64,000 bases of DNA from Candidatus Melainabacteria bacterium. GTDB taxonomy: Bacteria; Cyanobacteriota; Vampirovibrionia; 2-02-FULL-35-15. Positions 3,902-59,097 of this stretch are shown here, in pieces (the stretch's first letter is position 1; the number at the start of each line of letters is the position of its first letter). Made by a program: the position numbers and the translations under genes. The DNA is taken from NCBI GenBank assembly GCA_016193285.1, contig JACPSL010000018.1, positions 3,589-67,588 on the forward strand. The letters run 5' to 3'. The notes below the pieces were generated by a model, which was given only the letters and a program-made list of their open reading frames with translations, was not told the origin of the DNA and searched no databases.

Positions 3902-4885
3902 TTATTTCGTTATACAGTGCAACCCACCGCCTTCTTGAATTAAGAGTGAGCAATCAATTCCAACAATTTTTCTATCCGGGAATATTTTTTTAAAAATTTC
4001 TAAAGCAAGACTGTCAGATTTACAATTAAAAGTAGGAATTATTACTCCGCCGTTTACAAAAATAAAGTTTGCATAAGAGCTTGGAAGCTCATCATTATTA
4101 CCTGGTAAAGGTATTTCAATTATTTTAAGTTTATATTCTTTCTTAGGATGTTGCCATTTTTGTAAGTATTCAATACTTGGTCTTAGCCTGTCATAGTTTT
4201 TATTTTTTTTGTTGTTTGTGTTGCACACTAACATAGTTTTTTTATTTATAAACCTTGCAACGTTATCTATATGTCCATCAGTATGATCATTTGCAAGCCC
4301 ATGTTTTAACCAAATTATTTCTTCTATGTTAAATGCAGGTTTTATAATTTGCGCAACTTGTTCTTTTGTTAAATTTTTATTTCTATTTTTGTTTAAAACA
4401 CACTCTTCAGTAGTTAATAAAACCCCATCGCCAGAGAATTCTACAGCTCCTCCTTCTAATATGAATGGATAAGATTCAATTTCACACCCAAGATAAGTTG
4501 CAATTTCTTTTGGGACATTATTGTCAAGATCCCATGGAGGGAATTTACCTCCCCAAGAATTAAATTCAAAATCCAAAATTTTCTGTGCCATGAAAAATGG
4601 TCCATAATCTCGAATCCAGACATCGTTATTTGGAATAATTATTTTTTTTAATTTATGTTGGGGCGTATTGCAATACGCCCGTACCTCAAAATCGTTTAAT
4701 AATTCTATGTTCGGAAAAATTAAATTTACATTTTGAAAATCAAGAATAATTTTAATTAGCTCTTTATAAAACTCTTGTATCTTTCCTATTCTTTTTTTTT
4801 TCCACTCTTTTTCATTATGTGGCCATGAAAGCCATGTAGTATGCTGCTTTTCCCATTCAGCTAGATAATGTCCTCTTTTATTCAT
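3902..4885 (-). CDS. aguA: Agmatine deiminase
   Basis: AEWEKQ..TWLSWP, WIRDYGP, LEGGA, DHTDGHIDN, SYANF, GGGLHCIT; paired with aguB. Confidence 0.88.
   Translation of the reverse strand: MNKRGHYLAEWEKQHTTWLSWPHNEKEWKKKRIGKIQEFYKELIKIILDFQNVNLIFPNIELLNDFEVRAYCNTPQHKLKKIIIPNNDVWIRDYGPFFMAQKILDFEFNSWGGKFPPWDLDNNVPKEIATYLGCEIESYPFILEGGAVEFSGDGVLLTTEECVLNKNRNKNLTKEQVAQIIKPAFNIEEIIWLKHGLANDHTDGHIDNVARFINKKTMLVCNTNNKKNKNYDRLRPSIEYLQKWQHPKKEYKLKIIEIPLPGNNDELPSSYANFIFVNGGVIIPTFNCKSDSLALEIFKKIFPDRKIVGIDCSLLIQEGGGLHCITK
4657..4684. repeat. GTAG-type palindromic element inside aguA
   Basis: Perfect 20-bp palindrome GGGCGTATTGCAATACGCCC (4661-4680); the minus strand reads GTAC-core-CAAC. Confidence 0.75.
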
Positions 4886-12117: not shown

Positions 12118-12217
12118 GATAAATATTTATCTTTTCTTTATATTTTTACCTTTGGCTCTTAACTTTATTAGGTTAGATTCAAAGTATAGTTATTTTAGCA
12201 ACCTATTTGTTTTATTT

Positions 12218-13171
12218 ATGCCTTTAACAATTCAAAGAAATATTAATCAACGAAGCCAACAAAGCCAACGAAGCCAAGCCACAAGACAGTTAAAATCAGC
12301 TGCTAAAAAATCAAGCTCAGACGAAAAAATATTAAATGGTGTCAAAATTGCTAGTGGTGTTGCAGCTGCATTAGCTGGAGGCGGGGCTTTTTGGTTCTTA
12401 AAAGATTTTGGAGCAGATTCTGATTCTATATTTGGTTATATTAAAAAATCTTTAAAGTGGATTTTACTTAGTAGCGGGCTTGTTGGAGGAGGTATTATTG
12501 CATTTGGCTTTAAGAAAGATGGTGCGCTTCTTGTTGAAAATAAACAATTAAGACAAACAAGTTCACAACCTTCACTACCTCTAAACGAAGAGGAAAAAGA
12601 AGAATATGCACACAACTTGATTCAAGAATTATATGGAGAAAATAGAGTTAGTGAAGGAGCACAAAGAAATAAGATTTTTCAAGATTTATATGATTTGTTA
12701 ACGAAGACAAGAGATAAAAATATCTCTTTAAATATTTCCAAAATAATTCTTTCGTCATTAGACAGAGTAAGCATTCAAACTGATCAAGACGTTAATGAAT
12801 TTAGAAAATTGTTAGGGTTAATGAAAGATATTAAAAAACATGTCTTTGATTCAGGACTTTCTTTTAAATTAAATAATTCTATTCATATTATAGAAGAGAA
12901 AATAAAAAAGAGACTTGAAAGTGATTATGAGGGTATTGAGACTTCAATAATTTTAATTCAGGATGATTCTAAAGAACCAGAAGCACGTGCAGAAGAAATC
13001 TTACTTCTTAAAACAAAATATCAACAAACAGAAAATCCTTTAATTCATAGTGAATTAATTTCTTGCTTAGGTAAACTACGTGGTACGCCTTGTGGCGTTA
13101 CATTAGCTGATACTTTGATGGATATAGATCCCGGAGCAGTTTATAAAGAATTTATGAGGGACAGGCTTTAA
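12218..13171 (+). CDS. Hypothetical protein with Gln/Ser-rich N-terminus and two closely spaced hydrophobic segments
   Basis: ORF 12152..13171; ATG at 12218 is the likelier start; no recognised family. Confidence 0.65.
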   Translation: MPLTIQRNINQRSQQSQRSQATRQLKSAAKKSSSDEKILNGVKIASGVAAALAGGGAFWFLKDFGADSDSIFGYIKKSLKWILLSSGLVGGGIIAFGFKKDGALLVENKQLRQTSSQPSLPLNEEEKEEYAHNLIQELYGENRVSEGAQRNKIFQDLYDLLTKTRDKNISLNISKIILSSLDRVSIQTDQDVNEFRKLLGLMKDIKKHVFDSGLSFKLNNSIHIIEEKIKKRLESDYEGIETSIILIQDDSKEPEARAEEILLLKTKYQQTENPLIHSELISCLGKLRGTPCGVTLADTLMDIDPGAVYKEFMRDRL

Positions 13172-13246
13172 TATTTTTAAAATATTTGTTACCAATGTAA
13201 CCTTTGGTTACATCAAATTTCATTTCAATTATGCATAATAATTGAA

Positions 13247-13831
13247 ATGGGCAATGATTTATTTCAGAACAAATATAGAATAAAATCTATTCGATTGGAG
13301 CATTGGGATTATTCATCTGATGGGGCATATTTTGTAACCATTTGTGTGAAAGATAGAGAATGTGTTTTGGGTGAAATTGTTAATGGAAAAATAAAATTAT
13401 CAAAAATCGGGGATATTGTGAAACAATGTTGGTGTGAAATTCCAAAACATTTTAAAAATGTTGATTCGGACGAATTTATTGTAATGCCAAACCATGTGCA
13501 TGGAATCATACAAATAACCAATGATGGTTGTGATGATGGTTGTAGAGACGCGATTAATCGCGTCTCTACGGGTACGGGTGGAATTACCCACAAATACAAC
13601 CCAATGTTGTCAAAATCATTATCAACAATAATCCGATGGTATAAAGGACGTTGCAAATATGAAATAAATAAAAATCAAAACAAAATATATTTCCAATGGC
13701 AACCACGATTTTATGAATCAATCATTCGTAATGAAAACCATTTGAATGCAGTACGTGAATATATTGTTAATAATCCTTCAAGATGGGAATTCGATAGAAA
13801 CAATAATCCTTTATACCACAGCCATTTGTAA
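13247..13831 (+). mobile_element. REP-associated tyrosine transposase (RAYT, Y1 HUH transposase)
   Basis: RL..WDYS..GAYFVTIC N-terminus, MPNHVHGII HUH motif, WQPRFYESIIR, YIVNNP catalytic Tyr. Confidence 0.88.
13542..13569. repeat. Perfect 28-bp GTAG-tagged palindrome inside the RAYT gene
   Basis: GTAGAGACGCGATTAATCGCGTCTCTAC is its own reverse complement. Confidence 0.9.
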
Positions 13832-15130
13832 TTGATTTATTAATTTTTCAAAATCTGGAAATGATGTGCTTATCCACTCAGAGCCAGGAATTGTAATTGG
13901 TTCATTTGCTTTTAAGGCTGCTATTGCAATTGACATGGCTACTCTGTGATCTGAATGTTTTGGCCATTCAATATTTTGGTTTACTTGAAAAGGCTCTCCA
14001 TTTAAACCATTAATTTCTAAACCATCCTCAAGCTCGTTTACTTCTACGCCAAGTTTTCTTAAAACTTGTACCATAACACTTATTCTGTCTGATTCTTTGT
14101 AACGTAGTTCTTTTGCATCTTTAATAATTGACTTTCCGCTTGCTTGAGCCATTGCAATGCACAAAATTGGGATTTCGTCTATTAGAGTTATAATTGTACT
14201 CCCTTTGACTTCAACTGCATTAAGATTGTTAGATGTTACAAATAAATCAGCAACTGGTTCACCTGAAGAATCTTTTTTGTTTGTAATTTCAATTTTTGTT
14301 CCCATCTTCTTGAGTACATTTAATATGCCTGTCCTTGTAGGATTTACTAATACTCTTTGTAAAAGCATTTCAGAGCTTTGGATTATGCTACATGCTGTTA
14401 TAAAAAATGCAGCTGAAGATATATCACCTGGAATAGAAAGGTCTTGAGCTTTTAAGTCTTGTTCAGACCCAACTACAATTTCATTTTTTTCATGCTTGAT
14501 TGTTGCACCAAAAACATTTAACATCCTTTCAGTATGATCCCTTGTTTTTTCTTTTTCAATTATTCTTGTTTCACCTTTAGCGTATAGTGCTGCTAGCATA
14601 ATTGCAGATTTTACTTGTGCACTACTAACTAGCATTTCATAAGTAATTCCATGTAACATTCCTGGCAAAATTACAATAGGAGCTTTAGTATTATGTTCTC
14701 TAGCTGCAATTTTTGCACCCATAAGAGTAAGTGGCTCAATGACTCTGCCCATTGGACGACTTAAAAGTGAATCATCACCTGTAAGAATAGATAAGAAATT
14801 TTGTGTACTTAATAATCCACTAAGTAGTCTGATAGTTGTACCTGAGTTTCCACAGTTTAAAATGTTTTTAGGTTCTGAAAATGAGTTTCTTCCCTTACCA
14901 TAAATAGTTATAGATTCATAATTGTTATAAGTGTTAATTTCAATACCAAGCTGCTGCATTATTTTTAAAGTATTTAAACAGTCTCTGCTTGTTAATAAAT
15001 TTTTAATTTCTGTTCTTCCATTTGCAACTCCTCCAATAATAATTGCTCTGTGGGATATTGATTTGTCAGCTGGAACTGAGATGGTTGACTTAATTGGATT
15101 TTTTAAGGGAGTAACTGTAAATTGTTTCAT
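13811..15130 (-). CDS. aroA: 3-phosphoshikimate 1-carboxyvinyltransferase
   Basis: DKSISHRA, NCGNSGTTIRL, SSAQVKSA, RDHTERML, ELRYKESDRI, DHRVAM. Confidence 0.96.
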   Translation of the reverse strand: MKQFTVTPLKNPIKSTISVPADKSISHRAIIIGGVANGRTEIKNLLTSRDCLNTLKIMQQLGIEINTYNNYESITIYGKGRNSFSEPKNILNCGNSGTTIRLLSGLLSTQNFLSILTGDDSLLSRPMGRVIEPLTLMGAKIAAREHNTKAPIVILPGMLHGITYEMLVSSAQVKSAIMLAALYAKGETRIIEKEKTRDHTERMLNVFGATIKHEKNEIVVGSEQDLKAQDLSIPGDISSAAFFITACSIIQSSEMLLQRVLVNPTRTGILNVLKKMGTKIEITNKKDSSGEPVADLFVTSNNLNAVEVKGSTIITLIDEIPILCIAMAQASGKSIIKDAKELRYKESDRISVMVQVLRKLGVEVNELEDGLEINGLNGEPFQVNQNIEWPKHSDHRVAMSIAIAALKANEPITIPGSEWISTSFPDFEKLINQLQMAVV

Positions 15131-19147: not shown

Positions 19148-20371
19148 ATGAGTCAAGCAAAGAAAAACTATTTTCCATTACTTTTTGCAGTAGCCTTTAC
19201 ATATTTTACTTTTGGAGCAATTACAAATGTAGCAGGTGCAATTGTACCTAAGATTAAAGAAACATATCAAGTAAGTGGCTCAGCATCTAGTTTTCTAGCT
19301 TCTGTTTTTTTTATTGCCTACGGCTTAACATCAGTTCCATTTGGTTTTGTAATTAATAAATACGGGACAAAATTTACTTTGCTCTTAGGAGCACTCATTA
19401 CTACAGCTGGTGTTTTTCTCTTTGCTAGTGTGCCTGGTTATTATCCAAATATGATTAGTATGTTTACATGTGGCGTTGGAATTACAGCTCTTCAAGTTAG
19501 CCTTAATCCTCTTGTTAAAGAAATTAGTAACCCTGAAAAGTATTCTAGAAACTTAACTTTGTTTATGGTCTTGTTTGGGGTTGGATCATATGTAGCTCCT
19601 CATGTTGTAACTTGTGTAAAGTCAAGAGGACTAGAGTGGAATTATGCATATTGGTTATTTACAGCTGTTTCAATAGTTATGTTTTTTTCTTTAGCTTTTC
19701 CAAAATATCCTTCCGAACTCAGGGCTGGACATGTCCAGCCCCTACAAAACTCAAAAACTGGATTTGTAGAACTCTTAAAAGATCCATTAATGCTTATGTA
19801 CACATTAGCGATTTTTCTTTATGTAGGAGTTGAAGTAGGAGTTGCATACAATATTGGACTTTTTTTAGAAGATGCTCATAATATTTCAACTATTTTAGGA
19901 AATAATGCTGAGAGTATTAAAAATTCAACAATTGCAAATTACTGGCTTGGTTTACTTCTTGGCAGATTATTAGGAAGTTTTGTTTTGGATAAAATTCCAA
20001 CTAAAAAAGCAATTCAAATTTATATTTCTTGTGCAGCTCTTGCTTTAGGAGTTGCAGTCTTTTCAAAAAGCTTAACTATTGTGTTGTGGGCATTTCCAAT
20101 TGTAGGATTTTTTATATCAATTATGTTTCCTTCAATTTATGGCCTTGCTATTGACTCTTATAAAAAAGAATATTCTGGCATAGTTTCAGGAATACTTTGT
20201 ACTGCAATAATTGGTGGTGCTGTAATTGCACCAGTAATTACAAAAGTTTCAGAAATAACAGGTTCATTACAAGAACCAAACTGGCATATTGCTATGTTAA
20301 TTGCTTTTGCTTGTTATGCATATATTTTTACAGTAGGGATTTGGGCAAAAGGAAAAAGAATAGAAGGATGA
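19148..20371 (+). CDS. MFS transporter (FucP/GluP-like sugar permease)
   Basis: About 12 hydrophobic segments; LQVSLNPLV, FLYVGVEVG, SIMFPSIYGLA, AIIGGAV. Confidence 0.85.
   Translation: MSQAKKNYFPLLFAVAFTYFTFGAITNVAGAIVPKIKETYQVSGSASSFLASVFFIAYGLTSVPFGFVINKYGTKFTLLLGALITTAGVFLFASVPGYYPNMISMFTCGVGITALQVSLNPLVKEISNPEKYSRNLTLFMVLFGVGSYVAPHVVTCVKSRGLEWNYAYWLFTAVSIVMFFSLAFPKYPSELRAGHVQPLQNSKTGFVELLKDPLMLMYTLAIFLYVGVEVGVAYNIGLFLEDAHNISTILGNNAESIKNSTIANYWLGLLLGRLLGSFVLDKIPTKKAIQIYISCAALALGVAVFSKSLTIVLWAFPIVGFFISIMFPSIYGLAIDSYKKEYSGIVSGILCTAIIGGAVIAPVITKVSEITGSLQEPNWHIAMLIAFACYAYIFTVGIWAKGKRIEG
19718..19745. repeat. GTAG-type palindromic element inside the MFS gene
   Basis: Perfect 20-bp palindrome GGGCTGGACATGTCCAGCCC (19722-19741) followed by CTAC. 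Confidence 0.8.
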
Positions 20372-33073: not shown

Positions 33074-33838
33074 ATGCCAAAGCTTTGCATAAATATTGAT
33101 CATATAGCAACTGTTCGTGAAGCAAGAAAAACAATTGAACCTGATCCTGTTTTAAGTGCAAAGCTTGCAATTGAAGGTGGTGCAGATGGAATAACTATTC
33201 ATCTAAGAGAAGATAGAAGACATATAAAAGATCGGGATGTAATTCTACTAAGTCAATTTATTAATAGTCATCAGGGCAGGATAAATCCTGCCCCTACTGT
33301 ACTCTTTACGCTGGAGATGGCGGCCGCCGATGAAATGCTTGAAATATCTTCAAAGATAAAGCCTAATTTAGTAACTCTGGTTCCTGAGAAAAGACAAGAA
33401 CTTACAACTGAAGGTGGATTAAATGTTATTTCACAAAAAAAATATTTAAGTGATTACTTAGAAAAACTTCATAAGAATAACTTAGTAGTAAGCATTTTTA
33501 TAAATGCTGATAAAGAACAAATTAAATTAGCAAAAGACATAAGTGCTGATTTTGTAGAAATTCATACAGGCCCATATGCAGAAAACCCAAATGAAAAAGA
33601 ATTAAACCTTATAAAGGAAGCAATTTTGTTTGCTCAAAGCATTGGTCTTAAAACAAATGCAGGCCATGGTTTAAATTATGAAAACATAAAGCCTATTGCA
33701 AGGATAAATGGTATTGAACAACTTCATATTGGGCATTCAATTATAAGCAAAGCTGTAATGATTGGAATAAAAGAAGCTGTAAGAGAAATGAAAATTTTAA
33801 CTCAATTAGGCTTACCCCACGTTATAAATGCTACTTAA
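33074..33838 (+). CDS. pdxJ: Pyridoxine 5'-phosphate synthase
   Basis: NIDHIATVR, ITIHLREDRRHI, LEMAA, LVPEKRQELTTEGG, EIHTG, NAGHGL, HIGHSII. Confidence 0.95.
   Translation: MPKLCINIDHIATVREARKTIEPDPVLSAKLAIEGGADGITIHLREDRRHIKDRDVILLSQFINSHQGRINPAPTVLFTLEMAAADEMLEISSKIKPNLVTLVPEKRQELTTEGGLNVISQKKYLSDYLEKLHKNNLVVSIFINADKEQIKLAKDISADFVEIHTGPYAENPNEKELNLIKEAILFAQSIGLKTNAGHGLNYENIKPIARINGIEQLHIGHSIISKAVMIGIKEAVREMKILTQLGLPHVINAT
33270..33297. repeat. GTAG-type palindromic element inside pdxJ
   Basis: GGGCAGGAT-AA-ATCCTGCCC (33274-33293, 9-bp arms) followed by CTAC. Confidence 0.75.
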
Positions 33839-53162: not shown

Positions 53163-53179
53163 TTTAATCTCGAGAAATT

Positions 53180-53270
53180 CGGAGAGTGAGGGATTCGAAC
53201 CCTCGATAGAGCTTTTGGCCCTATAACTTCTTAGCAGGAAGTCGCTTTCGACCAACTCAGCCAACTCTCC
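53180..53270 (-). tRNA. tRNA-Ser(GCT)
   Basis: Minus strand GGAGAGTTGGCTGAGTTGGTCGAAAGCG..ACTTC-CTGCTAA-GAAGT, long variable arm, GGTTCGAATCC T-arm; CCA not encoded. Confidence 0.95.
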
Positions 53271-53278
53271 ATTTTTAT

Positions 53279-53354
53279 GCTCACGATAAGCGTGAGCTTC
53301 CGTTGGTAGATCCCTTTCACCTGATCGGATTCACCGAGTAAATCGGATGAATCC
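53279..53354. repeat. 76-nt double-hairpin element, copy A (immediately 5' of tRNA-Ser)
   Basis: Same stem, bulge, loop and 29-nt spacer geometry as 58518-58593, with compensatory changes. Confidence 0.7.
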
Positions 53355-53607
53355 TTTATTGATAACGCCTCGGAACTGCTACGCAAATTCCTCGGCTATT
53401 AGATGTGTCACATCACTCGCTCGGACTTCTGCCTTGGGAAAATCCTTGCTTAGAATTTTTATTTTTCAGTATACTCTTTGTTAGTATTTTTTCCCTAAGG
53501 GATTTATCCATTTTAACAGTAAATATTCCTAAATATTATACTGGTAGAATATCCCTTGCACAATTTGTCTATTATAAGATAAAGTCTTAATAGTTCTCTC
53601 GTGACAA

Positions 53608-58602: not shown

Positions 58603-59097
58603 ATGAAAACAATCTGGTTTTGTGGTAACGATGAAAATAAATTAATTTCCTTAGCAGAAATGCTTGGTGAAGAATTAATTCTAAGAGATCAATTTGTAGA
58701 AGTAATTGTCCAAAGTGAAGTAAAAGAAATTCTTGGAAAAGGATTAAAAGATACGAATGAAGATAAATCTGTTTTTATTGACAGGCTTGGTTTTTTAGGA
58801 AATCTTCTTCATAGAAATAATATTTACGCACTGATTGTGTCAAGTGAAGCCACATTGAACGATAGAAAACCTGTTAAAGAGAATTATAAAAATTATGTAG
58901 GGGTTTGTCATGGCAAACCCAATGATCCATTGACAGATGTAGCATTAGATGAAAAAGATGATATCAAACAAAATGCAAAAAAAATAATAGATTACCTTGT
59001 AAAATTAAATTTAATTCCTGGAAAAAATACAAGTGCTTATTCAAAGGAAGAAGAAGAAGAGATTAGACGAAGATTAGAGAATTTAGGTTATGTGTAA
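58603..59097 (+). CDS. Adenylyl-sulfate kinase (CysC)-like protein lacking the P-loop
   Basis: TIWFCG, EEL..R...VEV, LGKGL....ED....I.RLGF...LL.RN follow CysC; no GxxGxGK(S/T); C-terminal YS.EEEEEI..RL..LGY. Confidence 0.65.
   Translation: MKTIWFCGNDENKLISLAEMLGEELILRDQFVEVIVQSEVKEILGKGLKDTNEDKSVFIDRLGFLGNLLHRNNIYALIVSSEATLNDRKPVKENYKNYVGVCHGKPNDPLTDVALDEKDDIKQNAKKIIDYLVKLNLIPGKNTSAYSKEEEEEIRRRLENLGYV

Follow-up and report, generated by a model that had tools for sequence, protein, structure and literature searches.

An in-frame REP palindrome within a subclass 2.4 RAYT gene, and candidate intragenic REPs in other genes, of a Melainabacteria-like genome

Introduction

Among the TnpA-REP proteins, or RAYTs (tyrosine transposases associated with repetitive extragenic palindromes, REPs), subclass 2.4, which has been equated with the RAYT group 4 of Bertels, is recognized by the motifs NH[IFV]H, WQ and YIxNNP and by an insertion of variable size between β3 and αC, has a further 8 aa inserted where helix αB ends and lacks a C-terminal tail domain; its members have a median length of 194 aa (Quentin et al. 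2018, BMC Genomics 19:475, PMC6006769). The same study reported short DNA repeats in the linker of this subclass, double-foot REPs lying in frame between the HuH and Tyr motifs, and two REP types, a canonical long one with three basal G-C pairs and a double-foot one of the form GT[AG]G...C[TC]AC; canonical REPs were found within ±1000 nt for "the large majority" of the subclass 2.4 genes (PMC6006769). The abundance of 16-mers around RAYT group 4 genes is only modest (Bertels, Gallie, Rainey 2017). The present analysis concerns a stretch of 64,000 nt from a Candidatus Melainabacteria bacterium (contig JACPSL010000018.1, positions 3,589 to 67,588; hereafter the window), which contains a RAYT gene with a palindrome inside its coding sequence and palindromic elements in five other genes.

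Two further bodies of work bear on this locus. GTAG-tagged REPs that lie in frame within genes, with degenerate tags and with heterogeneity of stem and loop inside families, have been described by Di Nocera, De Gregorio and Rocco (2013, BMC Genomics 14:522, PMC3733652), in whose survey most species held chiefly intergenic, multi-copy elements. On the side of the enzyme, the closest structural references are the TnpA-REP of E. coli (PDB 4ER8; Messing et al. 2012; Ton-Hoang et al. 2012) and the TnpA of IS608, with which the RAYT of the window shares the HUH/Y1 fold and a GC-rich hairpin that carries a GTAG guide at its foot; the sequence identity, however, is 19%.

The gene in the window resembles subclass 2.4 in its motifs, its length of 194 aa, its β3/αC insertion and its in-frame REP, and both REP forms of the subclass occur in the window. 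It is very likely an ordinary TnpA-REP of subclass 2.4 (RAYT group 4) with an in-gene double-foot REP, the palindromes in the neighboring genes being intragenic REPs.

Identity and class of the RAYT gene

The open reading frame (ORF) is intact and matches the Pfam family Y1_Tnp (PF01797) with 27.5 bits against a cut-off of 23. A protein search returned 2632 homologs at E≤1e-5, from Patescibacteria, Cyanobacteria, Bacteroidota, Omnitrophota, Marinimicrobia and others, a set which is enriched for the peptide encoded by the palindrome, as the search was word-based. The histidines of the HuH motif and the putative catalytic tyrosine are conserved in an alignment of the 28 closest homologs (Table 1), and the WQ motif is found at W151-Q152. 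The AlphaFold (AF2) model has a mean pLDDT of 80.7, and a Foldseek search with it retrieved the TnpA of IS608 (E 3e-7), chain 4er8_A (E 2.4e-6, TMq 0.53) and the TnpA of ISDra2. The model has residues 91-114 as a loop that joins the HuH strand (83-90) to the helix after it; the pLDDT falls below 50 at residues 100-108, and the length of this linker is highly variable across the alignment. All of the sequence criteria tested for subclass 2.4 are found in this protein, i.e. the Y1_Tnp fold, NHVH, WQ, YIVNNP, 194 aa and an in-frame REP; the protein's length, the model and the alignment also show the variable insertion between β3 and αC and the lack of a C-terminal tail domain that are typical of the subclass.

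The palindrome inside the RAYT gene

A first, sequence-only reading of the window had described an HUH/Y1 transposase gene with a perfect GTAG...CTAC palindrome and a duplication next to it, and both are present. The whole palindrome reads GTAGAGACGCGATTAATCGCGTCTCTAC, with AGACGCGATTAATCGCGTCT as the inner part between GTAG and CTAC; it is the longest palindrome in the window, lies in frame between H85 and Y172 and is of the type with an AGAC foot (AGAC/GCGATTAATCGC). As single-stranded DNA it is predicted to fold into a hairpin of -14.1 kcal/mol (z -9.0). The perfect palindrome within the gene differs from the REPs of E. coli, which are imperfect, bulged and extragenic, and flank the gene.

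The conservation of this feature was assessed on 80 genomic loci with RAYT homologs, from as many species, which together with the window make up 81 genes. A perfect palindrome with arms of at least 10 nt is present in 64 of the 81 (arms of at least 14 nt in 39), compared with 6 of 405 shuffles with arms of at least 10 nt, and in nearly all of the genes the best palindrome is situated just after the HuH motif, in the linker. The homologs share a layout consisting of GTAG, a basal RGRC, a free 6+6 core, GYCY and CTAC, and the cores vary widely in sequence with their self-complementarity kept. Among 38 distinct 28-mers both sides change in 12 of the 14 pairs, and 95.7% of the cells are paired, as compared with 73% for shuffled and 35-49% for slid sequences; the 28-mers having been chosen as best palindromes, this percentage is inflated, which leaves the diversity of pair types unaffected. 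The pairs 13:16 and 14:15 are standard in 38/38 and 35/38 of these 28-mers, i.e. the symmetry reaches the center.

What is conserved here could in principle be the encoded peptide, RDAINRVST, as a functional protein motif that brings the palindrome about as a by-product. In the alignment of the 28 closest homologs D101 and V106 are invariant and A102-R105 and S107 nearly so, all of them residues encoded by the palindrome. It has to be considered, however, that the word-based search would itself enrich for this peptide, that the segment is a loop modeled with low confidence, and that the cores vary freely while remaining palindromic. Above all, one and the same 28-mer encodes CRDAINRVST in some homologs and VETRLIASL in others, and since the same DNA is read in two frames, the DNA and not the peptide is the conserved entity. 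An origin of the palindrome in a protein motif, which is extremely improbable, was rejected on the grounds of the second reading frame and the loop pLDDT of less than 50. A literal search of a collection of papers for the encoded peptides (DAINRVS, VETRLIASL) and for DNA words (GTAGAGACGC) returned primer coincidences only.

The linker holds several copies of the palindrome in some relatives: between two and five full or partial copies were seen in the homologs P0015, P0057, P0026 and P0044 of the alignment and at 149-420 and 331-480 of the loci L047 and L077, respectively, and P0044 has a partial copy elsewhere in the protein as well (AMNRVST). Such multiple copies suggest repeated insertion or slippage inside the RAYT gene.

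A second alternative is that the internal palindrome is a selected cis element, serving either as an autoregulatory binding site, on the gene itself or on the transcript, or as a protected "master copy" that seeds new REPs. The palindrome is kept at the same linker in the 64 genes mentioned above, across many phyla and among proteins diverged to about 40% identity, it varies together with the RAYT clade (see below), it is palindromic to its center, and in the window it persists without a flanking REP. Moreover, a second, AT-rich hairpin buries the start codon of the gene (Table 1); it may play a part in translation control and recalls the translational occlusion known for IS200. This alternative was derived from sequence comparison, however, and repeated re-insertion by the enzyme into a tolerant loop would produce an identical picture; in addition, the tandem and partial linker copies (P0015, P0057, L047, L077) look more like the result of continuing insertion or slippage than like a single fixed site. 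A selected cis element is thus considered possible but not probable, and the double-foot REP of an ordinary subclass 2.4 gene is retained as the preferred reading of the palindrome.

Palindromic elements in other genes of the window

The sequence-only reading had listed elements made up of a GTAN tag and a 20-nt palindrome in aguA, aguB, a major facilitator superfamily (MFS) transporter gene and pdxJ. All four are there, but the list was incomplete, as it had missed a sixth element, in a P-loop ORF, which consists of GTAG and a GC-rich 20-nt near-palindrome (GTAGGGGTTTGTCATGGCAAACCC). The six, including the one in the RAYT gene, are all predicted to form hairpins on single-stranded DNA with the tag at the foot (Table 1). 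Their length, which had been taken to be fixed at 28 nt, is 24 nt in the single-foot and 28 nt in the double-foot elements. Some tags are degenerate, and stems and loops are heterogeneous, as in the REPs surveyed by Di Nocera et al. in 2013.

Table 1. Features of the window discussed in the text (positions are those of the window)
Feature	Position	Strand	Description
RAYT / TnpA-REP gene, intact, assigned to subclass 2.4	13247..13831	+	194 aa; evidence from Pfam, NCBIfam, homologs, AF2, Foldseek
HuH motif codons, N82 H83 V84 H85	13490..13501	+	H83 and H85 invariant in the 28 closest homologs; fits NH[IFV]H
Catalytic-Tyr motif (putative), YIVNNP, Y172-P177	13760..13777	+	Y172 invariant in the 28 closest homologs; fits YIxNNP
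AT-rich hairpin at the start codon	13219..13251	+	14 bp, loop 5; 3' arm holds the RAYT start codon (13247-13249); RNA fold -17.2 kcal/mol, z -3.67
Tandem duplication, GATGGTTGT x2	13523..13543	+	12-nt period; copies at 13523 and 13535; abuts the 5' side of the palindrome; variable linker
In-frame double-foot REP, GTAG-AGACGCGATT / AATCGCGTCT-CTAC	13542..13569	.	perfect 28-nt palindrome; residues 99-108; reads (C)RDAINRVST
Candidate intragenic REP in aguA, GTAC-GGGCGTATTGCAATACGCCC-CAAC	4657..4684	-	degenerate double-foot 28-mer; peptide VRAYCNTP
Candidate intragenic REP in aguB, GTAA-GGGCTTGTCGCGACAAGCCC-TTAA	5180..5207	-	degenerate double-foot 28-mer; peptide CKGLSRQAL
Candidate intragenic REP in MFS transporter gene, GTAG-GGGCTGGACATGTCCAGCCC	19722..19745	-	central cytoplasmic loop; single-foot 24-mer; peptide RAGHVQPLQ
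Candidate intragenic REP in pdxJ, GTAG-GGGCAGGATTTATCCTGCCC	33274..33297	-	single-foot 24-mer, one central mismatch; peptide QGRINPAPT
Sixth element, GTAG-GGGTTTGTCATGGCAAACCC	58897..58920	+	in P-loop/APS-kinase-like ORF 58603..59097; 9/10 pairs; peptide VGVCHGKP

A REP was defined for counting as GT[AG]G located 0-2 nt 5' of a fully paired stem of at least 7 bp, with at least three G/C in the basal four pairs. This description applies to four of the six elements (RAYT, MFS, pdxJ and P-loop), the tags of aguA (GTAC) and aguB (GTAA) being degenerate. The window contains five matches of this type, whereas 200 dinucleotide shuffles gave 0.035 on average and 100 synonymous-codon shuffles of 62 coding sequences 0.03; since about 0.03 are expected in both kinds of shuffle, chance is excluded. 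The codon-shuffled null had been named beforehand as the test by which the family might be refuted, and the elements clearly exceed it.

Within the window the cores are all different, all six elements lie in ORFs, no intergenic copy exists and no REP stands beside the RAYT, as had been stated for the five elements then listed; extragenic location, a trait of the REP super-family, is accordingly not seen in these elements. This is in contrast to the Di Nocera survey, since the copies in the window are all genic, most of them are singletons, and two hosts show no net gain in length. The weight that had been placed on an all-intragenic set did not hold up, as ORFs of at least 100 aa cover 90.8% of the window and five out of five elements would fall into coding sequence by random placement with p ~0.62. 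With such a coding density no preference for genes is shown, and only a filter is implied by which in-frame, loop-located copies survive. The GC skew along the window was too noisy to match the orientations of the elements to the leading or lagging strand. Small dispersed repeats (SDRs) of ~21-27 nt within cyanobacterial genes were reportedly described by Elhai and co-workers in 2008; the elements of the window are not claimed to be SDRs.

A GC-rich hairpin without a GTAG tag, GCTCACGATAAGCGTGAGC, was also seen at 53279-53297, in the intergenic gap 53163-53607; it is probably a terminator and lies outside the REP family.

Copy number in the source metagenomes

The source of the genome is groundwater metagenomes, of which four public runs were available, kept as contigs only, a form in which rare variants are dropped. 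In two of the runs the word depth of the genome is about 18 and about 31, and that of the RAYT 28-mer 179 and 557. At least two further exact copies of this 28-mer (at least three in total) are found in both runs on long contigs having the depth of the genome, in different AT-rich contexts, and with contigs of equal depth carrying it, the RAYT palindrome is dispersed, probably in the same genome. The core of the aguA element has a word depth of 630 and 1595, compared with 17.6 and 29.7, and represents a multi-copy family in the community; elsewhere it was found on a contig with a depth ratio unlike that of this genome and with GC-richer flanks, and the host of these other copies is uncertain. 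Each of the other four elements (aguB, MFS, pdxJ, P-loop) occurs just once in these metagenomes.

Public assemblies of all four runs break exactly at the RAYT palindrome (13542-13543 and 13570-13571). The palindrome, with a word depth some 10-17 times that of the genome, is common to several genomes of the sample, so that metagenome-assembled genomes (MAGs) are fragmented at RAYT genes. The joints at 13542 and 13570 are no evidence of rearrangement, as they represent assembly breaks and short unitigs that share the palindrome.

Comparison with orthologs

Whether the elements had been added to their host genes was judged by comparison with orthologs, which had been proposed as a check along with the suggestion that short peptides are added to enzymes. 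The outcome is mixed, there being no uniform insertion: both proposals are borne out for pdxJ and aguB, and not for aguA, which shows no net gain, or the MFS gene, where the gain is close to none. The pdxJ element amounts to +8 aa relative to the PdxJ of E. coli and to +11 aa relative to the nearest orthologs without the insert, and the aguB element to +6 aa relative to 15 of 16 orthologs and to 6-9 aa relative to homologs in the PDB. By sequence comparison these two elements are insertions; for aguB the metagenome scan found relatives at no more than 54% identity, which are informative on the indel and not on presence or absence in close strains. In-frame palindromes in functional genes that add ~6-11 residues are likewise known from the intragenic GTAG REPs and from the palindromic elements (RPEs) of Rickettsia.

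Two further lineages carry the pdxJ element at the same site; their proteins (P0242 and P0243, encoded at loci L084 and L085) are 80-83% identical. Every base of the stem is retained in both. Where all three proteins have the same residue and this residue has at least four codons, the codon is identical at 5 of 6 sites within the element, versus 30 of 87 outside it in the gene (p ~0.02). The sole difference is in the center (33283-33284), which reads AA in the window and in L085 and TT in L084 (1764-1765), so that the 20-nt cores of the window and of L084 are exact reverse complements of each other; the change could be a "flip" of the loop or two adjacent transversions. On these alignments, the element is older than the split from the two related lineages. 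The loop of PdxJ that harbors it (around window residues 63-77 in the ortholog alignment) looks like an insertion hotspot. Unrelated insertions of differing lengths were seen in it in the Melainabacteria-like orthologs P0246, P0265, P0303, P0319 and P0329, and the loop of P0246 reads TRDAIRVTQ, which recalls a decayed element of the AGAC type.

For aguA and the MFS gene an origin of the palindrome in place, by template-switch "quasi-palindrome correction" or by replacement of a patch instead of insertion, has to be weighed, as their net change relative to orthologs is none and +1-2 aa, respectively. Those orthologs are distant, however (59% and 79%), both sites lie in variable loops in which a compensating deletion would be easy, and the GTAG/GGGC signature and the many copies in which the aguA core occurs elsewhere favor a transposed element. 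An origin in place is therefore judged unlikely for these elements, and intragenic REPs remain the preferred reading for them too.

Correspondence between enzymes and palindromes

Across the 80 homologous loci the type of the basal stem (AGAC versus GGGC) tracks the clade of the RAYT protein: in 53 of 56 cases a protein and its nearest neighbor have the same type, whereas permutation gave a mean of 29.8 and a maximum of 43. The clustering of the proteins was based on gap-poor alignment columns, by which the variable linker is largely left out. Related RAYTs also have cores in common, and REPs that flank or lie near a RAYT in other genomes mostly match the internal copy in their core or deviate from it only slightly, with some of them located in ORFs. 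The clade-tracking types and the cores shared by neighbors speak for cognate pairs of enzyme and substrate and against recognition by length or shape alone, and at the level of sequence comparison this points to a sequence-specific recognition of REPs by RAYTs.

This bears directly on the model put forward in the sequence-only reading, in which the RAYT of the window would mobilize any GTAN plus 20-nt palindrome by length and shape, creating a sequence-diverse, preferentially intragenic family. It is true that five cores of the window differ from each other while each retains a GC-based stem of 8-10 bp whose foot bears the tag, and that in some other genomes (L059, L049 and L074) several core variants are found near one RAYT. 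Besides the clade-tracking of foot and core types, however, the model is contradicted by the exact extra copies of the RAYT's own core, probably in the same genome, by the multi-copy family of the aguA core, by the different foot of the elements in the window (GGGC versus AGAC), by the antiquity of the pdxJ copy, by three elements being singletons without a trace of recent spread, and by an intragenic location that matches chance. Mobilization based on length or structure was therefore not borne out and is regarded as quite improbable, in favor of the reading as a subclass 2.4 RAYT with REPs of its known types.

A regular tandem array containing a REP was observed at 12121-13026 of locus L070, about 1.5 kb downstream of a Bacteroidales RAYT, with six copies of GTAGAGACGCGATGCATCGCGTCTCTAC at a spacing of ~160-181 nt and with conserved flanks.

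Weighing the assignment to subclass 2.4

Several findings weigh against the assignment of the gene to subclass 2.4 and of the other elements to its REPs. The NCBIfam model REP_Tyr_transpos (NF047646) matches the ORF with 59 bits, which is under its equivalog cut-off of 80, and in two stretches split by the linker; the model seems to have been built on other TnpA-REP subclasses. Within 1 kb on either side of the RAYT (12247-14831) no GTAG hairpin exists besides the internal one, whereas most genes of subclass 2.4 are flanked. The gene begins 75 nt from the upstream ORF, and its 3' end overlaps by 21 nt (13811-13831) with the convergent aroA (EPSP synthase, 13811..15130, minus strand), which leaves no space for flanking REPs. 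A second RAYT is found neither in the window nor in the 8.6 kb that follow it, as provided by a locus (L081) which is identical to the end of the window and extends beyond it, and the extension is without any REP-like element.

The five dispersed elements, furthermore, have GGGC feet, as opposed to the AGAC foot of the window's RAYT, and in this, too, the window departs from the subclass. The aguA gene shows no net indel relative to its closest representative (59% identity) or to others, its site being in a variable stretch, and the MFS element, which is missing from orthologs at ≤79-80% identity, comes with a net gain of only 1-2 aa. The palindromy that reaches the center is not demanded by a hairpin-only model with a 4-nt loop. 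Finally, among the contigs of the four metagenomes there is no version without an element, and hence no sign of movement at the population level.

Proposed mechanism

The following scheme takes the identity and anatomy of the gene, its conservation and covariation, the copy numbers and the ortholog indels as its starting point, with catalysis, mobility and the assignment of elements to enzymes being presumed. By analogy with E. coli TnpA-REP (4ER8) and IS608 TnpA, the internal REP would form a GC-based hairpin on single-stranded DNA with GTAG at its foot, and the RAYT would bind the hairpin together with the guide tetranucleotide, cleave and rejoin nearby, and thereby allow copies to spread. 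With 91% of the genome coding, the majority of copies would fall in genes, and only those in frame and in tolerant loops would persist, giving rise to short peptide inserts; the RAYT's own REP would likewise occupy a variable, disordered loop, the one between the HuH strand and helix αC. The five elements with GGGC feet would represent the second, "canonical long" REP type of the subclass, here located inside genes, and may differ in age and origin, with aguA belonging to a multi-copy family, pdxJ predating a lineage split and three being singletons. They are probably not products of the AGAC-foot RAYT of the window.

Host and significance

Among named relatives, those nearest to the MFS and PdxJ proteins come from "Candidatus Melainabacteria" MAGs, and more distant ones of the MFS protein are labeled Vampirovibrionia or Caenarcaniphilales, which identifies the host as a non-photosynthetic sister of the Cyanobacteria and fits the known range of subclass 2.4. 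The host is in line with the scattered distribution of the subclass, which includes the cyanobacterial lineage, but as an uncultured, non-photosynthetic, Melainabacteria-like organism from groundwater with a G+C content of 31% in the window, it differs from those in the subclass description.

The class, the in-gene REP, the double-foot design and the in-frame REPs in housekeeping genes have all been published already, Table S1 of PMC6006769 including 28-mers of the same design (GTAGAGACGCACGGCCGTGCGTCTCTAC and GTAGGGGCACAGCGCGCTGTGCCCCTAC), and the locus carries little weight as a discovery; it is a clean example from a streamlined, AT-rich, Melainabacteria-like genome. What is added to the published description is the conservation of the palindrome at the level of the DNA in ~80% of 81 homologs from many phyla, in either open frame, together with its co-variation with the clade and its central symmetry.

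The remaining interest lies in this strict DNA-level conservation of the internal palindrome, up to its center and in step with the phylogeny of the enzyme. If the palindrome were a functional cis element, this would bear on the role of RAYTs and on their persistence as single-copy genes. A rather doubtful extension of this idea is that the in-gene palindrome is an obligatory, co-evolving cis partner of the enzyme, as a master copy or an autoregulatory site, with its symmetry kept by selection or by templated self-repair, and that intragenic copies such as the one in pdxJ have long been under DNA-level constraint. Were this the case, a RAYT and its internal REP would be inherited as one unit and could be maintained in the absence of flanking REPs, as in the window.

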